A DNA stretch of 64,000 bases. It comes from Chitinophagaceae bacterium (lineage in GTDB: Bacteria; Bacteroidota; Bacteroidia; Chitinophagales; UBA10324). The stretch spans positions 132,870-196,869 of the forward strand of contig CANIPU010000003.1 in assembly GCA_947469485.1 (NCBI GenBank), in the 5' to 3' direction. This document shows positions 3,314 through 31,504 of this stretch, piece by piece (position 1 is the stretch's first letter; each line of letters starts with the position of its first letter). The position numbers were made by a program, and so were the translations under genes. The notes beneath the pieces are model-generated. The model did no database searches, was not told where the DNA came from, and was given only the letters and a program-made list of their open reading frames with translations.

Positions 3314-5938
3314 ATGAAGGGGTTAATTACTTTTTTTTTAGTTCTGATTATTTCCATATCAGCATATGCTCAATTTCCAAAGGGGGGATTTGGCGGAAAG
3401 CAAATGAATGTGGGGCACTTCTACGGCAGAGTAATTGATGCCGCAACAAAAAAAGGAATTGAGTTTACTACAGTTCAGTTAACACAAAACAAAATTGACT
3501 CAAGTACAAACCAGCCAATTGATGTAGTAGTTGCGGGTCAACTAACTAAAACAAATGGAGATTTCAGCCTGGAAAATCTATCTGTAATGGGTGAATACAA
3601 ATTACAAGTTACAGCAATGGGATATGGTTTATATGAGAAGAAAATTTCATTCAATATAAAATTTGGCCAGGGAGGCATGCAACAAATGTTAAATGCAGTT
3701 GATAAAGACCTTGGAAATATTTCTTTAAATATAACAGCGGTTAATCTCAATGAAGTAGTTGTTACAAATGAAACAGGCGTGTTTGAGATGAAAATTGATA
3801 AAAAGGTTTACAATGTAGGAAAAGACGCTTCAAATGCCGGAGGAACAGCTGAGGATGTTTTAAAAAAAGTGCCTTCTGTTAATGTTGATATTGATGGTAA
3901 TGTTACTATGCGCAATGCCGCCCCTCAGATAATGGTTGATGGAAGGCCCTCTACTTTATCTGTGGATCAGATACCGGCTGATGCAATTGAAACAATTGAA
4001 GTCATTTCAAATCCATCAGCTAAATATGATGCAAGCGGTGGCGGCAGTGGTATTCTGAATATTGTTTTAAAAAAAAATCGTAAACCAGGCTATAACGGAA
4101 ATATTCGCGCAGGAATTGATTCGCGATTAAAATTTAATTCAGGTGGTGAGATAAACAACAGACAAGGGAAAGTCAATATGTTTTTAAGTGGAATGTTTAA
4201 TCAGCGTAAGTCTATTGTAAACAGCGAAACAGACCGCTCCTACAATTTGTTAATTCCGCAAATTGATTTATTTCAAACAGACACCTCTGTTACCAAGGGA
4301 TTTATGGGGTTTGGCCGTGGCGGTTTTGACTGGTTCATTAATAACAGAAATACATTAACTGTGTTTGGGATGTTTAACAGAGGTTCATTTAATCCAACCG
4401 GTGAATTGTTTTCAAAAACAGATACCGTTTATTCTGATTCGGTTGTAACCACCTCGTCGTATCGAAAAACTAATTCTTCTCGCGACTTTCAAAATATTGG
4501 TACCGGCATTTCTTTCAAACACATATATCCTAAAGATGGAAAATACTGGTCGGGAGACATAAATTTTAATAAAAGTAAATCAGCTAATGGCGGAGATTAT
4601 AAAACCCAATATTTTGGTTCTGATGGAAGCACTTTAGGAAATCTGGTTCAACAAAAAGTTGAAGGAGAAGGTGATGTGCAGTTTATAACTGCTCAAACTG
4701 ATTTTGTAAATCCAGTAACGGAAAAAATAAAAATTGAAACAGGATTACGAGGTGCGTTAAGACAATATAATAGTTCATCAACTAATAAAATATATAATTA
4801 TGATAGTAGTGAATATCAAATAATACCATCAGATATTAGTGATTATAAATACACAGATCAGGTTTATGCAGGCTATTTCACTTTTACCAATCAAATAAAT
4901 AAATTCGGCTATCAGATCGGGTTAAGAGCCGAAAGTTCTTTTTATACCGGGAAAATTTTAAGTAATGATTCAACTTTTACAAACTCATATCCGGTGAGTT
5001 TGTTTCCAAGCGGTTTTATGAGCTATAAAATAAATGATGACAATAGTTTTCAATTTAATTATTCAAGAAAAATTAATCGACCAACTTTTTTTCAGTTGTT
5101 GCCTTATACAGATTACACCGACTCGCTGAATCTTTCGCGAGGTAATCCTGATTTGAAGCCAGAGTTTGTTAATGCACTTGAAGCGAACTATCAAAAAATA
5201 TTTGATAGAAAAAACAACTTACTTATTTCAGTTTACTATAAAAACACAAATGGAATCATTACCAACTATCAGGTGCAGGAATTTGATTCTGTTTTAAACA
5301 GGGGCGCAATTATTTCAACTTATGCAAATGCAAGTTCAAGTTATGCATATGGTGCTGAACTAACTACTCAAAACGCTGTAACGAAATGGTTTGATCTGTC
5401 AATGAATATAAATGCTTATAATTCATATATCAACGGATCAAATCTTGTTGAAAATTTAACTAACCAGCAATTCAGCTGGTTTGCTAAAGCAAGCACGACT
5501 TTTAAAATTCCAAAGAATTTTACACTCCAGGCATCAGGCGATTACCGTTCGAAAACAGCATTGCAGGTTGGCGGAAACACGCAGAGCCGTTTTGGTGGAA
5601 GTGGAATGGGTATGGGTGGCGGAGGTGGAAATTACATGGGCGGAACAACCACCACAGCTCAAGGATATACCAAACCGAATTATGGAATTGATGCCTCAGT
5701 TAAATATGAATTTATGAAAAATAAGGCAGCATCAATTTCATTAAGCGTTTCCGATATTTTTAAAACAAGAAAAAATATAAATTATTCCTCATCTGAATTT
5801 TTTACTCAAACTGTCGATCGAAGAAAAGATGCCCGGGTTTTCAAGCTTAATTTCAATTATCGTTTTGGAAAATTTGATGTTTCATTATTCAAACGCAAGA
5901 ACATGAACATGGATATGCCTGATGTTCCAATTCAATAA
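3314..5938 (+). CDS. TonB-dependent outer-membrane receptor with N-terminal carboxypeptidase-regulatory-like domain
   Basis: Signal peptide MKGLITFFLVLIISISAYAQ. GRVIDAATKKGIEFTTVQL matches a CarboxypepD_reg-like domain. Plug region strings are DVLKKVPSVNVD...IETIEVISNPSAKYDASG. A long beta-barrel region ends in NFNYRFGKF-type C-terminal strands. Confidence 0.85.
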   Translation: MKGLITFFLVLIISISAYAQFPKGGFGGKQMNVGHFYGRVIDAATKKGIEFTTVQLTQNKIDSSTNQPIDVVVAGQLTKTNGDFSLENLSVMGEYKLQVTAMGYGLYEKKISFNIKFGQGGMQQMLNAVDKDLGNISLNITAVNLNEVVVTNETGVFEMKIDKKVYNVGKDASNAGGTAEDVLKKVPSVNVDIDGNVTMRNAAPQIMVDGRPSTLSVDQIPADAIETIEVISNPSAKYDASGGGSGILNIVLKKNRKPGYNGNIRAGIDSRLKFNSGGEINNRQGKVNMFLSGMFNQRKSIVNSETDRSYNLLIPQIDLFQTDTSVTKGFMGFGRGGFDWFINNRNTLTVFGMFNRGSFNPTGELFSKTDTVYSDSVVTTSSYRKTNSSRDFQNIGTGISFKHIYPKDGKYWSGDINFNKSKSANGGDYKTQYFGSDGSTLGNLVQQKVEGEGDVQFITAQTDFVNPVTEKIKIETGLRGALRQYNSSSTNKIYNYDSSEYQIIPSDISDYKYTDQVYAGYFTFTNQINKFGYQIGLRAESSFYTGKILSNDSTFTNSYPVSLFPSGFMSYKINDDNSFQFNYSRKINRPTFFQLLPYTDYTDSLNLSRGNPDLKPEFVNALEANYQKIFDRKNNLLISVYYKNTNGIITNYQVQEFDSVLNRGAIISTYANASSSYAYGAELTTQNAVTKWFDLSMNINAYNSYINGSNLVENLTNQQFSWFAKASTTFKIPKNFTLQASGDYRSKTALQVGGNTQSRFGGSGMGMGGGGGNYMGGTTTTAQGYTKPNYGIDASVKYEFMKNKAASISLSVSDIFKTRKNINYSSSEFFTQTVDRRKDARVFKLNFNYRFGKFDVSLFKRKNMNMDMPDVPIQ

Positions 5939-24566: not shown

Positions 24567-24971
24567 ATGATTGAGGTTACTTGTGCAATTATTCTGAAAG
24601 AAAATAAAATCTTAGTAACTCAAAGAAGTGAAAAGATGAAACTGCCTTTGAAGTGGGAGTTTCCCGGAGGAAAGATTGAAAAAAATGAAACAGAAGAAAA
24701 CTGTTTATTAAGAGAGATAAAAGAAGAACTCAATTTAGAAATTGAAATCATAGAAAAATTAGAATCAAAAAGTTTTGATTATGAAACTTTCTCAATAAAT
24801 CTCATTCCGTTTGTTGCAAAGTATTTGAAAGGTGAAATTGTTTTAAGTGAGCATAAAGATTTCAAGTGGTTAACGAAAGAAGAGTTAAAATTTTTGGATT
24901 GGGCTGCTGCTGATATTCCTGTATTAGATGAATATTTAAAATTGAATTATGATGAATCAAGGGCTCTATGA
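24567..24971 (+). CDS. NUDIX hydrolase, MutT/NudG-like (deoxy)nucleoside triphosphate pyrophosphohydrolase
   Basis: Nudix box GGKIEKNETEENCLLREIKEELNL (Gx5Ex7REUxEExGU, with N at the last G). WEFPGGK and the AIILKENKILVTQR N-terminus are typical of the MutT/NudG subgroup. The last 23 nt overlap the downstream gene. Confidence 0.85.
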   Translation: MIEVTCAIILKENKILVTQRSEKMKLPLKWEFPGGKIEKNETEENCLLREIKEELNLEIEIIEKLESKSFDYETFSINLIPFVAKYLKGEIVLSEHKDFKWLTKEELKFLDWAAADIPVLDEYLKLNYDESRAL

Positions 24972-27900
24972 GCAACTCATAAACAAAATGATTTTGTCCA
25001 AGCTAAATGAATTGGACAGAAATAAATTTCACATAAAGGAAAGTGAGATTGACAAGAGTGAAGCCGCAAGAATTCTATCCCAATATTTAGGGGAAGTAAT
25101 TCAATTTGGTCTTAATTCAATTTCAGGTGATGATAGTATTGAAAAGCAAATTGAACTATCGAACAAAATAATTTCCCTTCTGAGAACGGAGTTGAAAGAC
25201 GAAGAGTTTGATGAGGATTTGATTGCTACAGAAGCAAAAATTCTTTCAGCAATATTTAAAAAGCTTGATGCAAAGTTTTCTGACTTTGAAAAACATCTCA
25301 AAGAAATAACTCCTTATACAAGATTATCACAAAGCGAATTGTTCACTGGAAACAATGCGGGCATTTCTCTTGAAAGCGAAATCAAAAAAGAAATTCTTTC
25401 ATCTGATAAAATCAATTTCCTTGTTTCATTTATAAAGTGGACTGGAATAAGAATATTTGAAAAGGAATTATTTGAATTCACAGAAAGAGGCGGACTATTA
25501 AAAGTGATTACTACTTCATACATGGGTGCTACTGATTTGAAGGCAGTAGAATATTTATCAAGTTTGAAGAATACAGAAATCAAAGTTTCATATAACACAG
25601 ACAATGAAAGGTTACACGCAAAAGCATATTTGTTTTTGCGAGATACAGGATTTCATACTGGCTACATAGGTTCATCAAATATTTCTCGTTCTGCACTTAC
25701 AAATGGTTTAGAGTGGAATCTTAAAGTGACAACAAAAGAGGTTGGACATATCATTGATAAATTCCAAAAGACATTTGAAACTTATTGGTTGGATAAGGAA
25801 TTTGAATTGTTTGACAAAACAATTCATACAGAGAAGTTAAGGATTGCTTTAAAGACAGAGAGAATACATGAACGAAATAATCCTGCTGCTTACTTTGATA
25901 TAAAACCATTTCCTTTTCAAGAAGAGATTCTTGAAAAGTTAGAGACAGAAAGAATTGTCCACAACCGCTTTAGAAATTTAATTATTGCTGCAACAGGAAC
26001 GGGCAAAACAGTTATTTCTGCATTTGATTTCAAGAACTTTAAGAAGAAAAATCCATCAGCAAAACTTTTGTTTGTCGCACACCGAAAAGAAATATTGCAA
26101 CAAGCACAAGCAACATTTCAAGGAATTTTGAAAGACAACAATTTTGGAGAGTTGTGGGTTGACGGACTTGAACCTGAAAAATATGATTGTGTTTTTGCTT
26201 CTGTTCAAACACTAAATAATAGGATTGCCACACTGAATCTTTCAGAATCATTTTATGATTTCATTATTGTAGATGAGGTTCATCACATTGCAGCTTCAAG
26301 TTATCGTCCGATTTTAAATCGGTTCAAACCCAAAATTCTTTTGGGATTAACTGCAACTCCTGAGAGAATGGATGGAGAAGATATTCTAAAAGATTTCTGT
26401 GATACGATTGCTGCTGAAATCAGATTGCCGGAAGCATTAAACAGAAAATTGCTGTGTCCATTTCAGTATTTCGGTATTACAGATAGTGTTGACTTGTCAA
26501 ATGCCACATGGCAAAATGGAAAATACTTGCCAAGTGAACTCACAAGAATTTATACTCAAAATGATAAACGAATTGGAGAAATAATTTCTAACCTCAATAA
26601 ATATCTTAGAGATATTAATGATGTAAGAGCACTTTGCTTTTGTGTCACTCAAGAACATGCTCAGTTCATGGCAGAGAAATTTTCACTTGCTGGATTGAAA
26701 GCTGATTATTTAGTAAGTTCAAGAAATGAATTGAGAGAAGAGTTAAGACGAAAATTTTTAAGCAAGGAAATCAATTACCTTTTTGTAGTTGACATATTTA
26801 ATGAGGGAGTTGATATACCAGACATTGATACAATTTTATTTCTCAGACCAACAGAAAGCTTAACTGTATTTCTCCAACAACTTGGAAGAGGATTGAGATT
26901 AGCTGAGGGCAAGGAGTGTTTGACCGTTTTAGATTTCGTTGGCAACTCACGACCCGAATATGATTTTGAAAACAAGTTCAGGGCACTGGTAGGAAAAACA
27001 AATACAGCAATTCAAAAAGAGATTGAAGATGATTTTCCGCATTTGCCTTTAGGATGCACAATTGTATTGGAGAAAAAAGCAAAAAAGTTTATTCTACAGA
27101 ATATTTATAATGCAACTCTTCATAACAGAAATCAATTGCTTACTAAAATTCGAAACTACAAGCATCAAACAACACTACCTCTTTCTCTAAAAAACTTTTC
27201 AAATTTTTATCATATTCCTCTGCAATACATTTATAAGAGAGGGAACTGGAAAAGACTGTGTGCTGACGCTGAACAAATTGAAAACTATCCAACAACAAAT
27301 GAAAATGAAATTAAAAGAGCCATCAGTAACAAGTGGCTTTCATGCAATTCAAATTCTTACTTCCAATTTATTTTATCATTAGCAAAAAAGAATTTCAATA
27401 TCAATTTAAACAATCTTAATGATGAAGAAAAGTCAATGTACTTAATGCTTCATTATGATATTTGGCAAGATGAGGGTGGTTTCGATTCTCTAGAAGAAAG
27501 TATCAAATCGATTGGGAAGAATAAAGCATTGACAGAAGAAATAATTGAAGTCCTTGAAATACTAATTGACAAAATTGATTTTCTTGAAAGAGAAATTAAG
27601 CTTTCATATTCTCAACCACTTAAACTTCATAGTAGATATACGCGCGAACAAATATTAGCCGCATTTGAATTTCACACCTTCAATAAAAAATCATCAAATC
27701 GAGAAGGAGTTGCTGAGAATAAAAAAACAAAGACTGAATTACTTTTTGTTGAACTAATAAAATCTGAAAAAGATTTTTCTCCATCTACTCTTTATAAAGA
27801 TTATGCTGTAAGTGAGAAAATATTTCATTGGCAATCTCAAAATTCTGCAATGCCAGAAAGTGGCAAAGGACTCTCTTATATCACTCACAAAGTAGATGAC

Positions 27901-28089
27901 AAAACTGTTTTACTTTTTGTAAGAGAGAGAAATGCAGATGAGTTTGGAATAACTATGTCCTATGTTTTTTTAGGCGAGGTTACCTATAAGGATCATTATG
28001 GAAGAAAGCCAATGAGTATTAATTGGGAATTAAAAGAACCTATTCCACCATATTTATTAAAGGATTCTGTTAAGATGGCGGTAGGATAA
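24949..28089 (+). CDS. SauUSI-like PLD-nuclease / SF2 helicase / DUF3427 protein (candidate type IV modification-dependent restriction enzyme)
   Basis: 1046 aa. PLD motif is ERLHAKAYLF...YIGSSNISRSAL (His codon near 25615). Walker A is AATGTGKT (about 25987-26010) and the DEAH box is VDEVHH (about 26272-26286). Helicase C strings are VDIFNEGVDIPDIDTILFLRPTES...QQLGRGLR. The C-terminal ~250 aa (PLKLHSRYTREQILAAFEF...HWQSQNS) resembles DUF3427. Confidence 0.8.
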   Translation: MMNQGLYEQLINKMILSKLNELDRNKFHIKESEIDKSEAARILSQYLGEVIQFGLNSISGDDSIEKQIELSNKIISLLRTELKDEEFDEDLIATEAKILSAIFKKLDAKFSDFEKHLKEITPYTRLSQSELFTGNNAGISLESEIKKEILSSDKINFLVSFIKWTGIRIFEKELFEFTERGGLLKVITTSYMGATDLKAVEYLSSLKNTEIKVSYNTDNERLHAKAYLFLRDTGFHTGYIGSSNISRSALTNGLEWNLKVTTKEVGHIIDKFQKTFETYWLDKEFELFDKTIHTEKLRIALKTERIHERNNPAAYFDIKPFPFQEEILEKLETERIVHNRFRNLIIAATGTGKTVISAFDFKNFKKKNPSAKLLFVAHRKEILQQAQATFQGILKDNNFGELWVDGLEPEKYDCVFASVQTLNNRIATLNLSESFYDFIIVDEVHHIAASSYRPILNRFKPKILLGLTATPERMDGEDILKDFCDTIAAEIRLPEALNRKLLCPFQYFGITDSVDLSNATWQNGKYLPSELTRIYTQNDKRIGEIISNLNKYLRDINDVRALCFCVTQEHAQFMAEKFSLAGLKADYLVSSRNELREELRRKFLSKEINYLFVVDIFNEGVDIPDIDTILFLRPTESLTVFLQQLGRGLRLAEGKECLTVLDFVGNSRPEYDFENKFRALVGKTNTAIQKEIEDDFPHLPLGCTIVLEKKAKKFILQNIYNATLHNRNQLLTKIRNYKHQTTLPLSLKNFSNFYHIPLQYIYKRGNWKRLCADAEQIENYPTTNENEIKRAISNKWLSCNSNSYFQFILSLAKKNFNINLNNLNDEEKSMYLMLHYDIWQDEGGFDSLEESIKSIGKNKALTEEIIEVLEILIDKIDFLEREIKLSYSQPLKLHSRYTREQILAAFEFHTFNKKSSNREGVAENKKTKTELLFVELIKSEKDFSPSTLYKDYAVSEKIFHWQSQNSAMPESGKGLSYITHKVDDKTVLLFVRERNADEFGITMSYVFLGEVTYKDHYGRKPMSINWELKEPIPPYLLKDSVKMAVG

Positions 28090-28476
28090 TTCTATCTTGC
28101 TTGCAAACTCATCGAATATCTTTTTTGCTTTTTCCAAATCTTTTTCATTGGCAATTTCATTTGGCAAATAAATTTCAGTCCATGAGTAAATTCTGTTTTT
28201 ATTAAGCGGAAATCTTTCACGCACATTAAAACCTTTCCGCTCTGCGATTGACCTTATTTTTTTGGGAATTAGTCCTTCACACATAATACACCAACATGGT
28301 TTAAGACCATTAAATTTTTCAGAGAAATGAGAATGAAATCCAGAACTACTTGTTAGAATTCTAAATTTATTTAAAACGCCAACTGCCTTATAGACTGGTG
28401 TTTCAATATATGCGTCAACATCAGGATTATATATTTCTGTAAATCCTTCTTGATTAATTCTTTCCTGCAATTTCAT
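28057..28476 (-). CDS. Hypothetical protein (139 aa), convergent with and overlapping the SauUSI-like gene by 33 bp
   Basis: ORF-track ORF; no family was recognised. Contains a CWCIMCEG cysteine cluster. Its 3' end overlaps 28057-28089. Confidence 0.45.
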   Translation of the reverse strand: MKLQERINQEGFTEIYNPDVDAYIETPVYKAVGVLNKFRILTSSSGFHSHFSEKFNGLKPCWCIMCEGLIPKKIRSIAERKGFNVRERFPLNKNRIYSWTEIYLPNEIANEKDLEKAKKIFDEFASKIELSYRHLNRIL

Positions 28477-29408: not shown

Positions 29409-29663
29409 ATGGCACGCGAACTAAAACGGAACTCATTAAAGAACGGATTTTACATTGAGGTTTGCTCCATGGGCTCAAGGCAGGGAATAAAAATTGCTTC
29501 TGAAACCCTTCAGGAAATGCTGAAGCAGCAGGATGCCTACAAGGCAAACAAGTATGTAATTGTATGGGGCGAACACAAGGATGGAAAATGGCTGCATGAA
29601 AAAAAGATGCCTGCCGAACCCACTGTACCTAAAGCACCTAAGCTGAAGAAAGCTTTGATATAA
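29409..29663 (+). CDS. Hypothetical small basic protein (84 aa)
   Basis: Only an ORF-track ORF with a lysine-rich C-terminus. No family was recognised, and an antisense ORF of similar size also exists. Confidence 0.3.
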   Translation: MARELKRNSLKNGFYIEVCSMGSRQGIKIASETLQEMLKQQDAYKANKYVIVWGEHKDGKWLHEKKMPAEPTVPKAPKLKKALI

Positions 29664-29780
29664 ATTTTTGTTATTAGGAGCTTGCCGGGCATTTTGTTTT
29701 CTGTTCAATATTCCGGGCCATTGTCAGTAAAATATTTTTTATGCGATTCTCAGCGCCTTCGTTTTTAACTTTAAATCGGT

Positions 29781-30053
29781 AGTTGTATTTATTGTCGGCT
29801 GCAGTTTGCCTGTTTTATTAAGCAGTTTGTTTATTACCAAACTGAGTTTGCTAATTGTTAAATGCAGTTTAATAACTGTAAAATTTAAATCCAAAGTTGT
29901 AGGGCGTGCTTTGTTAATAATAATTCCCGGCTTGTTAATGATTGCATGCTGATTGTTAATTGCTTTTTTCATTTTCATAATTAGCAAAGTGACTTTGTCT
30001 GCTATCAAAATAGGTTTGTTAATGAACAAAGCTGTATTCACAGCTATCAAAAA
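29781..30053. repeat. Array of about 12-13 degenerate tandem repeats on an exact 21-bp grid (core TTGTTAAT)
   Basis: A TTG core falls at 29806, 29827, 29848, 29911, 29932, 29953, 29995 and 30016, all congruent modulo 21. The exact octamer TTGTTAAT occurs at 29911, 29932, 29953 and 30016. 7/8 variants are TTGTTTAT at 29827 and TTGCTAAT at 29848. Degenerate units fill the remaining grid positions. Confidence 0.75.
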
Positions 30054-30338
30054 GTGCCTGAAGCGTTTATTTGGAATTTTATGGCAATAGCCTGTAGTGG
30101 CACACAAGCCGCATATGTGCCAAAAGAAGTTGTAGAATGAAGCAAAAACACCCTCTTGAAACCGGCTAAAAAATAAATTTTTTTGCCCTGAAAAAATCTG
30201 CTTCCTGTAAATAATTGGCTTATTGTTACTTTTAAAAAACGCTGTTTTTTTAATAATTTAAGCGAAAATTTCAGTATAATATATTTATGTAATATATCCA
30301 AATTTATTTTTATTTCAATTCGGCGTGCCAAAAAAAAA

Positions 30339-30371
30339 TTTGCAAATGGCTGAGCAGCAATTATATGTTTG
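30339..30371 (+). promoter_or_regulatory. Candidate Bacteroidota promoter (-33 TTTG, -7 TATGTTTG) for the FN3 gene
   Basis: TTTG at 30339-30342 and TATGTTTG (TAnnTTTG) at 30364-30371, with a 21-nt spacer, 41 nt upstream of ATG 30413. An A9 tract lies immediately upstream of the -33 element. Confidence 0.35.
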
Positions 30372-30412: not shown

Positions 30413-31036
30413 ATGACAAAGAGATTGATTCCTCGGCTCGGGCTTTCAAAGTTGAATTCCCTGGCATTTGCGCAGTTTGTTGCTTACATCATTACTGCGT
30501 TAACCGGCAATGCGGCTTTTCCGGCCCCATCGCCCACGCTTGTTGCGCTTCAGGCGAAATTAACTGAACTGAAAAATGCCATTACCGATGTAAGTGCTCG
30601 GGTGGCCGGCGCCATTGAACTGCGCAACCAGATCAGGAACGAACTGGTTATAATGCTCACCGAGCTTGCCAACTACTGTGTGGTGGCAGCTGCAGGTGAT
30701 GCAGCGGTTTTTAAAACCAGTGGTTTTGAGTTGCGGAGAACACCTCAACCCGCACCCGACCCGCTGGACCCTGTAAAAAATACGCGACTGGTGCTAACCG
30801 GCGACGAAACTGAACTTCGTTTACTATTTGACCCTGTACGCTATGCCAAGAGCTACGAAATATACATGAGCCTTGATGATGATCAGCATTTTACTTTTTA
30901 CTCTACCACATCTGGCCAGCGTTTTTTGCTGCGAAACCTCTTACCGGGGAAGAGGTACTTTGTAAAAGTGAAGCCGGTTGGCCCAAAGGGCATTAAAGGT
31001 GGTTTTGGTGAAATTGCAAGCCGAATAGCCGCTTAA
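30413..31036 (+). CDS. Hypothetical protein with C-terminal fibronectin type III-like domain
   Basis: Start moved to MTKRLIPRLG because the ORF-track start lies inside the -7 box. The C-terminus LRLLFDPVRYAKSYEIYMS...LLPGKRYFVKVKPVGPKGIKGGFGEIA is FN3-like. It is visibly GC-richer than the flanks. Confidence 0.6.
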   Translation: MTKRLIPRLGLSKLNSLAFAQFVAYIITALTGNAAFPAPSPTLVALQAKLTELKNAITDVSARVAGAIELRNQIRNELVIMLTELANYCVVAAAGDAAVFKTSGFELRRTPQPAPDPLDPVKNTRLVLTGDETELRLLFDPVRYAKSYEIYMSLDDDQHFTFYSTTSGQRFLLRNLLPGKRYFVKVKPVGPKGIKGGFGEIASRIAA

Positions 31037-31259
31037 ATTAAATTGTTGATTTTTTTCATAGGTGTTTTTTTTGATGAAAGCGCTTTCAGCTGTAAAAGGC
31101 CGGGGCGCTTTTTTTATTCTTTTGCCCTGAATAATTAACCTAAATAAAAAGTTAATCGGGCGAAAACTGAGTTTCAACGAATATTAACATACACTTAACA
31201 GATTGTTGATTTTTATAAAATACATATAGACGAGGTTTGCATTACAAATACAAATAGCC

Positions 31260-31361
31260 ATGTCGAGTTTAATTCTTGCCTGTTCCATTTTCTTCGTTCT
31301 GTTCTGCTACATCGCTGTCAGCGTTGCTGCTTATAACAGAAAGAAATCAAAGGGACACTAA
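31260..31361 (+). CDS. Possible 33-aa single-TM peptide
   Basis: It translates MSSLILACSIFFVLFCYIAVSVAAYNRKKSKGH*: a hydrophobic helix followed by a basic tail. The only support is the ORF and its composition. Confidence 0.2.
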   Translation: MSSLILACSIFFVLFCYIAVSVAAYNRKKSKGH

Positions 31362-31504
31362 TATCTAAGGGGGTTAATATAATGAGGTTTTATACCCCTC
31401 TCCCATCCCTGTTTTATCGGTAGGGGAGAAGTATGTTTCACGGGAAACAATGCAATTATTGTTTTGCATATCAATCAATTAGCACAAAAAAAACAGTTGA
31501 AATA

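Follow-up and report, generated by a model that had tools for sequence, protein, structure and literature searches.

INTRODUCTION

ARG boxes, the sites of ArgR/AhrC, are dyad-symmetric sequences whose centers lie 21 bp apart on one face of the DNA and that are bound cooperatively by an oligomer at or upstream of the promoter. The 22-bp iterons of R6K gamma and the repeats of P1 incA are 19- to 22-bp direct repeats with a spacing of about two helical turns, and they titrate a sequence-specific protein. At the 20-bp repeats of pSK41 parC, at R1 parC, and at the heptads of pSM19035 omega, small dimeric proteins coat contiguous repeats whose orientation can vary, and a continuous nucleoprotein structure results. 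Type III toxin-antitoxin loci, which often lie in defense islands, carry the tandem repeats of ToxI (units of 34 to 45 nt) upstream of toxN, and CRISPR arrays combine conserved repeats of 23 to 50 bp with unique spacers of similar length and with cas genes. BldC, a small MerR-like helix-turn-helix (HTH) protein, is reported to form a cooperative multimer on variable numbers of direct repeats (PMC5859096). Here we analyze a tandem array in a 64-kb stretch of a Chitinophagaceae bacterium (64,000 nucleotides of contig CANIPU010000003.1, called the window throughout) that precedes a gene for a small protein with a fibronectin type III (FN3) domain. The array is apparently the local copy of an undescribed element that keeps a fixed 21-base period, changes rapidly in sequence, and lies upstream of one family of small FN3 proteins; our literature searches turned up no description of such an element.

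RESULTS

The window array and its period

Our array caller placed the array at positions 29796-30048 (no strand assigned), where 12 degenerate tandem units follow an exact 21-bp grid; limits of 29781-30053 are equally defensible. When the sequence was laid out in rows of 21 bases, the TTG core that an earlier note on this DNA had described fell in one 21-bp phase, at 29806, 29827, 29848, 29911, 29932, 29953, 29995, and 30016, and the columns of 29781-30053 approximated (G/T)(C/G)AGTTTGTTAAT...AAA. Four units carry the exact octamer TTGTTAAT (29911, 29932, 29953, and 30016), and the first three of these are consecutive cores 21 bp apart on the plus strand (29911-29960). Two other on-grid cores on the plus strand (29827-29855) match seven of the eight positions, namely, TTGTTTAT at 29827 and TTGCTAAT at 29848, and units 1 to 4 share a start that reads GCAGTTTG, GCAGTTTG, TGAGTTTG, and GCAGTTTA. 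The best-preserved unit (30015-30030, no strand assigned) is the dyad TTTGTT-AATG-AACAAA, which holds the fourth exact octamer (30016-30023), and there is an inverted repeat, CAGTTTG/CAAACTG, at 29823-29844.

We compared the periodicity of 29781-30053 with that of 2000 dinucleotide-preserving shuffles. Identity at lag 21 was 0.488, versus 0.292 in the shuffles (z = 6.97), a value that no shuffle matched at any lag from 1 to 70; lags 42 and 63 gave z values of 5.93 and 4.21. In a sliding scan of the whole window at lags of 5 to 60, the array was the top periodic signal (0.514 at lag 21, position 29800). The period was thus confirmed by autocorrelation, but TRF at default stringency returned just a 1.9-copy fragment (29845-29884) because the units are only about 50 to 60% alike. 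The octamer is not enriched across the window (11 matches versus 8.9 expected), and the signal therefore resides in clustering and phasing and not in the word. We saw no difference in length between seven copies that represent the window's species, nor between three contigs that carry P0005. Three strain single-nucleotide polymorphisms (SNPs) fall within it, at 29815, 29819, and 29834.

The conserved partner of the array is an FN3-family gene on the plus strand (30413-31036; 207 aa), which starts about 360 bp downstream of it. A likely Bacteroidota-type promoter for this gene, recognized by consensus match only, lies about 290 bp downstream of the array on the plus strand (30339-30371) and consists of TTTG at 30339-30342, 21 nt, and TATGTTTG at 30364-30371. 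The AlphaFold model of the protein (pLDDT 92) has a helical N-terminal domain (residues 16-101) followed by a C-terminal FN3 domain, and the N-terminal domain of the family has the invariant motif TGNxxFPxPxPxL. Profile comparisons with PDB and Pfam found no relatives of the N-terminal domain, and a Foldseek search with the model of the protein matched FN3 domains only. Pfam, PHROGs, NCBIfam, and PADLOC scans of this protein and of an 84-aa protein encoded upstream of the array likewise gave only FN3-domain matches.

Related arrays precede FN3 homologs in at least three phyla

By scanning one genome per species with a profile, we obtained 80 more loci, which belong to Chitinophagales, Flavobacteriales, Sphingobacteriales, Verrucomicrobiota, and Acidobacteriota; we give individual loci an L number. 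The FN3 homologs with 57 to 86% identity each have a gene-free gap of about 690 to 1030 bp upstream, and these gaps hold arrays of period 21 or 42 made of different units. At most loci, the strongest periodicity within about 10 kb was an array of period 21, 42, or 63 located 350 to 750 bp before the FN3 match. With fixed, arbitrary thresholds, the array caller found arrays of at least 140 bp in 62 of 71 upstream-1500 windows of FN3 homologs, compared with 17 of 309 control windows from the same loci; the 17 include arrays of this kind that are displaced. Within the 1200 bp upstream, 70 of 77 loci had their best lag at 21 (28 loci), 42 (29 loci), or 63 (13 loci). All 70 arrays have peaks at both lag 21 and lag 42 (mean identity, 0.555 and 0.596), and they contain 7 to 22 units. 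They range from near perfect (10 copies with 89% matches in L024) to degenerate, and the window array is among the most degenerate. The sequence of the unit is wholly different among loci, even between paralogous copies within one genome. Across 83 loci, no recurrent open reading frame (ORF) family other than FN3 was found. The array is therefore linked to the FN3 gene in at least three bacterial phyla, Bacteroidota, Verrucomicrobiota, and Acidobacteriota. Giant multi-FN3 proteins dominated an exhaustive representative search that used the FN3 profile, and its outcome is uninformative on the size of the family.

Core, phase, and symmetry

The nearest different relative of the window locus, L095, encodes a downstream FN3 protein that is 86% identical, and its array cannot be aligned with that of the window by blastn. 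L095 nonetheless has TTGTTAA five times in one 21-bp phase, so that it shares the core on the grid with the window while the rest of the unit differs. This comparison indicates that the core and its phase are under selection while the remainder of the unit drifts. L101 has a strong array with the consensus CGCAATCATTAACAACATTGT, in which the same core lies on the other strand, as ATTAACAA. Counts of TTGTT versus AACAA are 6 versus 1 in the window, 8 versus 1 in L095, and 1 versus 10 in L101; the orientation of the array relative to the FN3 gene is therefore not fixed. At a contig edge, L096 (1-95) has a contiguous run of at least 13 TTGATAA/TTGACAA heptamers, in which the core recurs in 7-bp form; an FN3 homolog with 58% identity follows about 390 bp downstream. 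The 7-bp sub-period that these heptamers suggested is not general (lag 7, +0.006; p = 0.5), and over the 70 arrays there was no general sub-period of 7 or of 10 to 11 bp.

Dyad symmetry is frequent in the units. The best-palindrome score of the consensus unit averaged 6.46, versus 5.34 in shuffled units (sd 0.95, n = 71). Examples are TTCCCA-gtct-TGGGAA in L024, TTTGCA-cgta-TGCAAA in L044, and TACTG-N4-CAGTA in four Sphingobacterium loci, and the 6-4-6 layout of the window dyad at 30015-30030 is also present in L044 and L024. Many cores are contiguous palindromes that leave no room for a loop (TTTTGTACAAAA, ATTCAAGCTTGAAT, and CCCATGGG). We considered whether palindromic cores that match restriction sites carry meaning and set the idea aside, any 6-bp palindrome being some enzyme's site. 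Within Sphingobacterium arrays, the arms are conserved and the 4- to 7-nt spacers are variable, as expected if arm positions were contacted by a protein and spacer positions were not.

The close relative L099 (673-2188) has its FN3 gene split into 100- and 113-aa ORFs by a frameshift or an assembly error, and its upstream gap has neither periodicity (z = 1.1) nor TTGTTAA. Joint loss of the array and of an intact FN3 gene fits a functional coupling of the two. Between array and gene, a TAnnTTTG box occurs in the window (30364), in all nine of the listed Sphingobacterium loci, and in L007 and L012; in Bacteroidota, this promoter-like box, again a consensus match only, lies 100 to 300 bp downstream of the array. 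We also tried reading the array itself as a row of Bacteroidota promoters and rejected the idea on account of the misfit of the TTTG spacing and of the GC-rich arrays.

The ORF through the array is not a gene

The earlier note had preferred a DNA-level signal to a translated heptad repeat encoded on the minus strand. The minus-strand ORF does exist (29739-30107; 122 aa, TTG start), and gene callers give a 103-aa version of it (29739-30050). Translation into a repeat protein of the form x-I-N-K-x-x-x would agree with a minus strand that stays open for 172 codons in this AT-rich DNA, with the calling of a product by gene finders, with a period that is a multiple of 3, and with a 236-aa ORF in L101 on the strand where the core reads ATT-AAC-AA. 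The TTG start lacks a start context, however. No Pfam domain was found in the 122-aa ORF, and PHROGs, NCBIfam, and PADLOC gave no match. A protein search found no homologs, a weak negative since the identical 103-aa called product was also missed. That product is predicted on at least six contigs, and a negative from this large search calls for caution when the query is repetitive or of low complexity.

The relatives also argue against a gene. L095 has no ORF longer than 51 aa over its array on either strand, L009, whose flanks are about 90% identical up to window position 29748, has no ORF of 45 aa or more at the array region, and L099 has none longer than 60 aa at the corresponding gap. The reading frame is thus without conservation in these three loci, though L095 retains the DNA core. 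The products from L101 and the window have only the repeat in common (BLASTP E = 0.11), at opposite ends. Across 71 related arrays, frames were open on neither strand in 22, on the plus strand only in 11, on the minus strand only in 15, and on both in 23, with no strand preference, and every frame cycle has stops in the array of L041, whose 44-bp period consists of two 22-bp sub-units (10.5 copies, 91% matches). All three in-array strain SNPs are nonsynonymous in the ORF frame, with codons worked out by hand. One argument offered for the DNA-level signal was the use of identical ATT-AAC-AA codons in the exact copies, but copies of one octamer cannot differ in their codons, and the argument is without weight. 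The preference itself stood, since L095 and L101 keep the TTGTTAA core and the 21-bp grid and do not keep the ORF. We conclude that the 122-aa ORF is not a gene and that its heptad "protein" is a by-product of the 21-bp DNA repeat. Gene finders call spurious ORFs through such arrays (103 aa in the window and 184 aa in L101), and protein databases are contaminated as a result.

Candidate binding proteins

In both the window's clade and Sphingobacterium, a small gene on the same strand lies just upstream of the array. In the window, this is the gene for the 84-aa protein (29409-29663, plus strand), which has a Lys/Pro-rich tail, is 71 to 85% identical in relatives, and is syntenic with the array in this clade only. 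The Sphingobacterium gene ends 3 to 62 bp before the array and encodes 127 aa, with a helical (coiled-coil) N-terminal half and an HTH_17 (excisionase-like) C-terminal half. These two proteins and the N-terminal helical domain of the FN3 protein are our candidate binders.

Sphingobacterium arrays fall into motif groups, and the last 60 residues of the HTH_17 protein are 82 to 94% identical within groups and 61 to 70% identical between the TACTG and TTGTACAA groups, while the FN3 N-terminal domain is 89 to 92% identical between these same two groups. L101 keeps the core of the window, yet its FN3-family protein is only 23% identical (hhalign probability, 99.6%). Both comparisons, which are of sequences, argue against the FN3 protein as the determinant of specificity.

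Surroundings of the array

The window locus is chromosomal, and its flanking genes (YbeY, DUF4175, and YCII) are housekeeping genes that are syntenic across species. Just left of the array, the conserved 20-nt block AAAATATTTTTTATGCGATT (29729-29748, plus strand) is also read in L095, L009, L014, and L101, and the similarity to L009 (about 90%) ends at this block. DNA just upstream of the window locus is variable between strains and defense related. In the window (24949-28476) and L001, this DNA encodes a 1046-aa methyl-directed restriction enzyme of type IV (PLD, helicase, and DUF3427 domains; PADLOC E = 6e-227) and has a 139-aa ORF, and strain L002 (345-4164) has Vsr, an HTH protein, a C5 methylase, and an HpaII-type endonuclease in the same place.

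Between the array and the FN3 promoter there is an inverted repeat with 7-bp stems, TGGCACA...TGTGCCA (30097-30122), with no T-run after it on either strand. Two ATTGTTGATTTTT 13-mers downstream of the FN3 gene (31042-31054 and 31202-31214) had been described as related to the array. Both are exact, but we found no link to the array; they form an isolated two-copy repeat, 160 bp apart, with no longer repeat around them. Right after the second copy, in the 470-bp gap between the FN3 gene and ybeY, is an unannotated 33-aa ORF (31261-31362, plus strand), MSSLILACSIFFVLFCYIAVSVAAYNRKKSKGH, with one hydrophobic helix and a basic tail.

Several features of the other loci deserve mention. In three of them, one to three genes are inserted between the array and the FN3 gene: an IS200-like Y1 transposase, a defense ATPase, and a UDG-like gene in L055 (424-4989), a 280-aa ORF in L070 (3056-4938), and a membrane protein with an NlpC-like gene in L073 (3558-5001). 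Directly upstream of arrays, defense genes are often found, namely, HEC-05/DUF262, AriA/AbiL-like ATPases, PDC-M38A, and type I methyltransferase and specificity genes (L044 2556-4292, L055 2027-3856, L067 3000-4142, L070 1356-2927, and L007 376-3974); these are individual occurrences and not an established enrichment. The gene after FN3 often encodes a fibre-like protein, a partner that is missing in the window. About 20 verrucomicrobial loci (e.g., L024 5766-6221 and L086 5760-6155) have a family that starts MPYDPxLP there, often with collagen triple-helix repeats and tail-fibre PHROG matches. At the same place, L096 (1327-3345) has a 672-aa protein with Peptidase_S74 (endosialidase chaperone) and T9SS sorting domains, and Sphingobacterium has a DUF5675 protein. 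One Chitinophagales genome has the paralogous FN3 loci L007 and L012, and a 122-bp segment (4089-4210 and 561-682, respectively; 84% identical) is common to both just upstream of otherwise different arrays. About 570 bp before its 44-bp array, L041 has a second, unrelated tandem repeat (3492-3700; 52-bp period, about 4 copies, more than 90% identical). About 2.1 kb before the array of L079 (Pyrinomonadaceae), each strand has one match to the Acido-Lenti-1 RNA that exceeds the gathering score (RF01687; 2168-2353).

DISCUSSION

A proposed phased lattice of binding sites

We favor, with evenly balanced confidence, an explanation in which the array acts in cis on the FN3 gene as a lattice of binding sites for a protein, phased so as to lie along one face of the DNA. 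The array would be a noncoding cis element with one sequence-specific site every 21 bp, for which TTGTTAAT would be the core in this lineage, and because this spacing equals two turns of B-DNA, all sites would face the same way. A dimeric or multimeric DNA-binding protein may coat the 150- to 470-bp array cooperatively, and the coated array may set the transcriptional state of the downstream FN3-family gene, whose own putative promoter in Bacteroidota would lie between array and gene. Unequal crossing-over probably homogenizes the units; both the near-perfect arrays and the higher-order periods of 42 and 63 bp would then be accounted for. As in operator arrays, a conserved core is found at a fixed helical phase with free spacers, both in the comparison of the window with L095 and in the arms and spacers of Sphingobacterium. 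Of the options raised in the earlier note, a cooperative repressor array is the version closest to this proposal.

Several points weigh against the lattice. Some concern the binder. Across the loci there is no universally linked DNA-binding gene, the sole universal partner being the FN3 protein, and neither its model nor profile comparison with PDB and Pfam gave a recognizable DNA-binding fold in its N-terminal domain. The 84-aa protein belongs to a small family of six clusters, its AlphaFold model (pLDDT 63) has no fold match, and L012 has a related core and no 84-aa gene in the available sequence. The covariation of motif and upstream gene fits a binder role, and it may equally reflect linkage or shared phylogeny. 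Other points concern the arrays. A minority (L019, L074, and L056) are plain direct repeats with no dyad symmetry. In some loci (L074 and verrucomicrobial loci) 17 to 140 nt separate the end of the array from the start codon, a placement in which the array might serve as a leader or overlap the promoter, and the distance from array to gene is highly variable, the three loci with intervening genes included. Finally, most loci are metagenome assembled, so that repeat copy numbers may be misassembled, and the loci are not phylogenetically independent, nine of them being from Sphingobacterium.

Alternative explanations

An RNA-level element is an unlikely alternative to the lattice. On this explanation, the array would be transcribed, as the leader of the FN3 mRNA or as an RNA of its own, and the 21-nt units would serve to bind or to titrate a protein, for example the FN3 protein, much as type III toxin-antitoxin repeats (ToxI) or CsrB-type sponges do. 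The array lies close upstream of a fast-evolving protein gene with which it diversifies, many units could form stems of 5 to 6 bp with 4-nt loops, and the short distance to the start codon at some loci would suit a leader. Two further results favor RNA and tell against a DNA lattice: the FN3-sense strand folds about 8 kcal/mol better than its complement (44 versus 27 loci, p = 4e-4), and arm mismatches are more often G-T than A-C (253 versus 165). However, the arm columns have an excess of changes from C/A over G/T positions in transversions as well, and the bias is therefore not specific to transitions that preserve G-U pairs. The flipped orientation in L101 relative to the window and L095 is also hard to reconcile with RNA, as are the many loop-less contiguous palindromes and the arrays without symmetry. 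Folding of the window array was no better than that of shuffles (z = -1.7 for the plus strand and -1.2 for the minus strand), a terminator-like site lies between array and gene in just 9 of 70 loci, and in Bacteroidota the promoter-like box is downstream of the array. A search of Rfam 15 gave a sub-threshold chance match only in the window and nothing on the arrays of 14 related loci. The RNA tests were thus mixed, with a weak orientation bias and no positive evidence for a structured RNA.

We consider it quite unlikely that the array is a functionless minisatellite, that is, an ancestral 21-bp repeat maintained by slippage and unequal crossing-over that hitchhikes with the FN3 gene. The higher-order periods and near-perfect arrays are typical of concerted evolution, the unit drifts freely in sequence, and in the window the array is degenerate and does not differ in length between strains, all of which a minisatellite would accommodate. 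What it would leave unaccounted for is an exact period kept in three phyla, with a single indel variant (22 bp), among FN3 proteins that are 25 to 35% identical. Neither would it predict a core and phase that persist where the rest of the unit is randomized, the enrichment of dyad symmetry, or an array that is lost in L099 where the FN3 gene is frameshifted.

Still harder to sustain, and very improbable in our view, is a role as a recombination or cassette-exchange boundary or as a copy-number switch, with the array either as the border of an FN3 cassette that can be swapped or as a repeat whose length varies to switch expression. The window and L009 resemble each other exactly as far as the array, and their upstream flank is far less divergent than the segment with the array and the FN3 gene. 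A cassette would also suit L101, which has the 84-aa gene and the core but a distant FN3 protein, the extra genes in L055, L070, and L073, and the strain variability of the adjacent DNA. Against this, no recombinase is linked to the array in the 83 loci, and its length is constant among the seven copies from the window's species and the three P0005 contigs. Steps of 21 bp preserve helical phase, so they would not switch a phase-dependent contact.

The earlier note had also raised plasmid Rep iterons and ParR/ParB-type centromeres. That the array is the Rep-binding origin or partition site of an integrated plasmid-like or other mobile replicon strikes us as highly doubtful, even though direct repeats of 21 to 22 bp in runs of 7 to 22 resemble P1 incA, R6K gamma, and pSK41 parC and the module occurs in several copies per genome beside variable, defense-rich DNA. 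The Rep reading failed on a chromosomal locus with no Rep gene nearby or recurrent in the 83 loci, and the centromere reading failed on the lack of a linked gene for a partition NTPase or a centromere-binding protein in the same set. A Pfam scan of the neighbors of the window array found no Rep, Par, integrase, or relaxase gene, and none recurs in the 83 loci. The FN3 family had no match in 72,556 plasmids (PLSDB) or 50,697 phages (INPHARED) searched by tblastn or in a scan of 2.9 million viral contigs (IMG/VR), and the flanks are those of a syntenic housekeeping region. Translation of the minus-strand ORF, on the evidence laid out above for and against it, is scarcely credible.

A possible two-part module and wider implications

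A bolder reading, which we regard as a minor but real possibility, is that array and FN3 gene form a previously unrecognized two-part module in which the array, as DNA or as RNA, would be the platform on which the FN3 protein or a partner specific to the lineage assembles. Such a module would be widespread in Bacteroidota, Verrucomicrobiota, and Acidobacteriota and rapidly diversifying, with several copies per genome, and it would often border defense islands and often be followed by fibre-like genes (collagen-like or Peptidase_S74). If true, it would be a new class of repeat-and-protein system, for instance an epigenetic or immunity-type switch with a surface or defense function, and not an ordinary operator.

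The array also has consequences beyond this locus. A noncoding element whose period of exactly two helical turns is kept across phyla while the sequence turns over completely offers a clean natural example of selection for DNA geometry and not for sequence. The FN3 family, whose N-terminal domain has no Pfam or PDB relative and which spans at least three phyla, gains a conserved nucleic-acid partner, and its function therefore becomes testable. Cultured Sphingobacterium species offer well-preserved arrays, obvious palindromic cores, and an adjacent HTH gene.

Comparison with known systems

The array resembles ARG boxes in its dyad-symmetric sites, its 21-bp spacing, and the placement of sites on one face of the DNA. 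ARG operators, however, have two boxes, rarely more, with a conserved sequence and regulator, whereas the arrays have 7 to 22 sites of a sequence that varies among species, and no ArgR-like gene is linked to them. The HTH_17 (excisionase-like) gene beside the Sphingobacterium arrays recalls the head-to-tail filaments of BldC and Xis on direct repeats (PMC5859096). In that account BldC is without a coiled-coil dimerization domain, unlike the Sphingobacterium protein with its long helical N-terminal half (PMC5859096). Moreover, the HTH_17 gene is lineage specific, and in the window the unrelated 84-aa gene takes its place.

Like plasmid iterons, the family keeps throughout a spacing of about two turns, its 21-bp grid falling within 17 to 22 bp, but iterons accompany a rep gene and a replicon origin, and neither is present here. 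Type II and Ib centromeres and omega arrays share with it contiguous short repeats and variable orientation, and the TTGATAA heptamers of L096 add to the likeness; the arrays differ from those centromeres in being chromosomal, in having no ParA, ParM, or ParR, and in being tied to an FN3 gene and not to a partition operon. ToxI/toxN loci also place an array of fixed unit length and variable unit sequence directly upstream of a fast-evolving protein gene, and they too are frequent in defense islands. The present arrays differ from them in their 21-nt units, their flippable orientation, and the rarity of a terminator-like site, and the helical and FN3 model of the downstream protein is not a ToxN/AbiQ fold and has no Pfam or PADLOC match to ToxN. 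They are also unlike CRISPR arrays, being contiguous 21-mers with variable stretches of 4 to 7 nt, and no cas genes were found in the 83 loci. None of the systems compared here combines, as these arrays do, a period that is fixed while the sequence is free, as many as 22 sites, and an obligate link with a single protein family across phyla.

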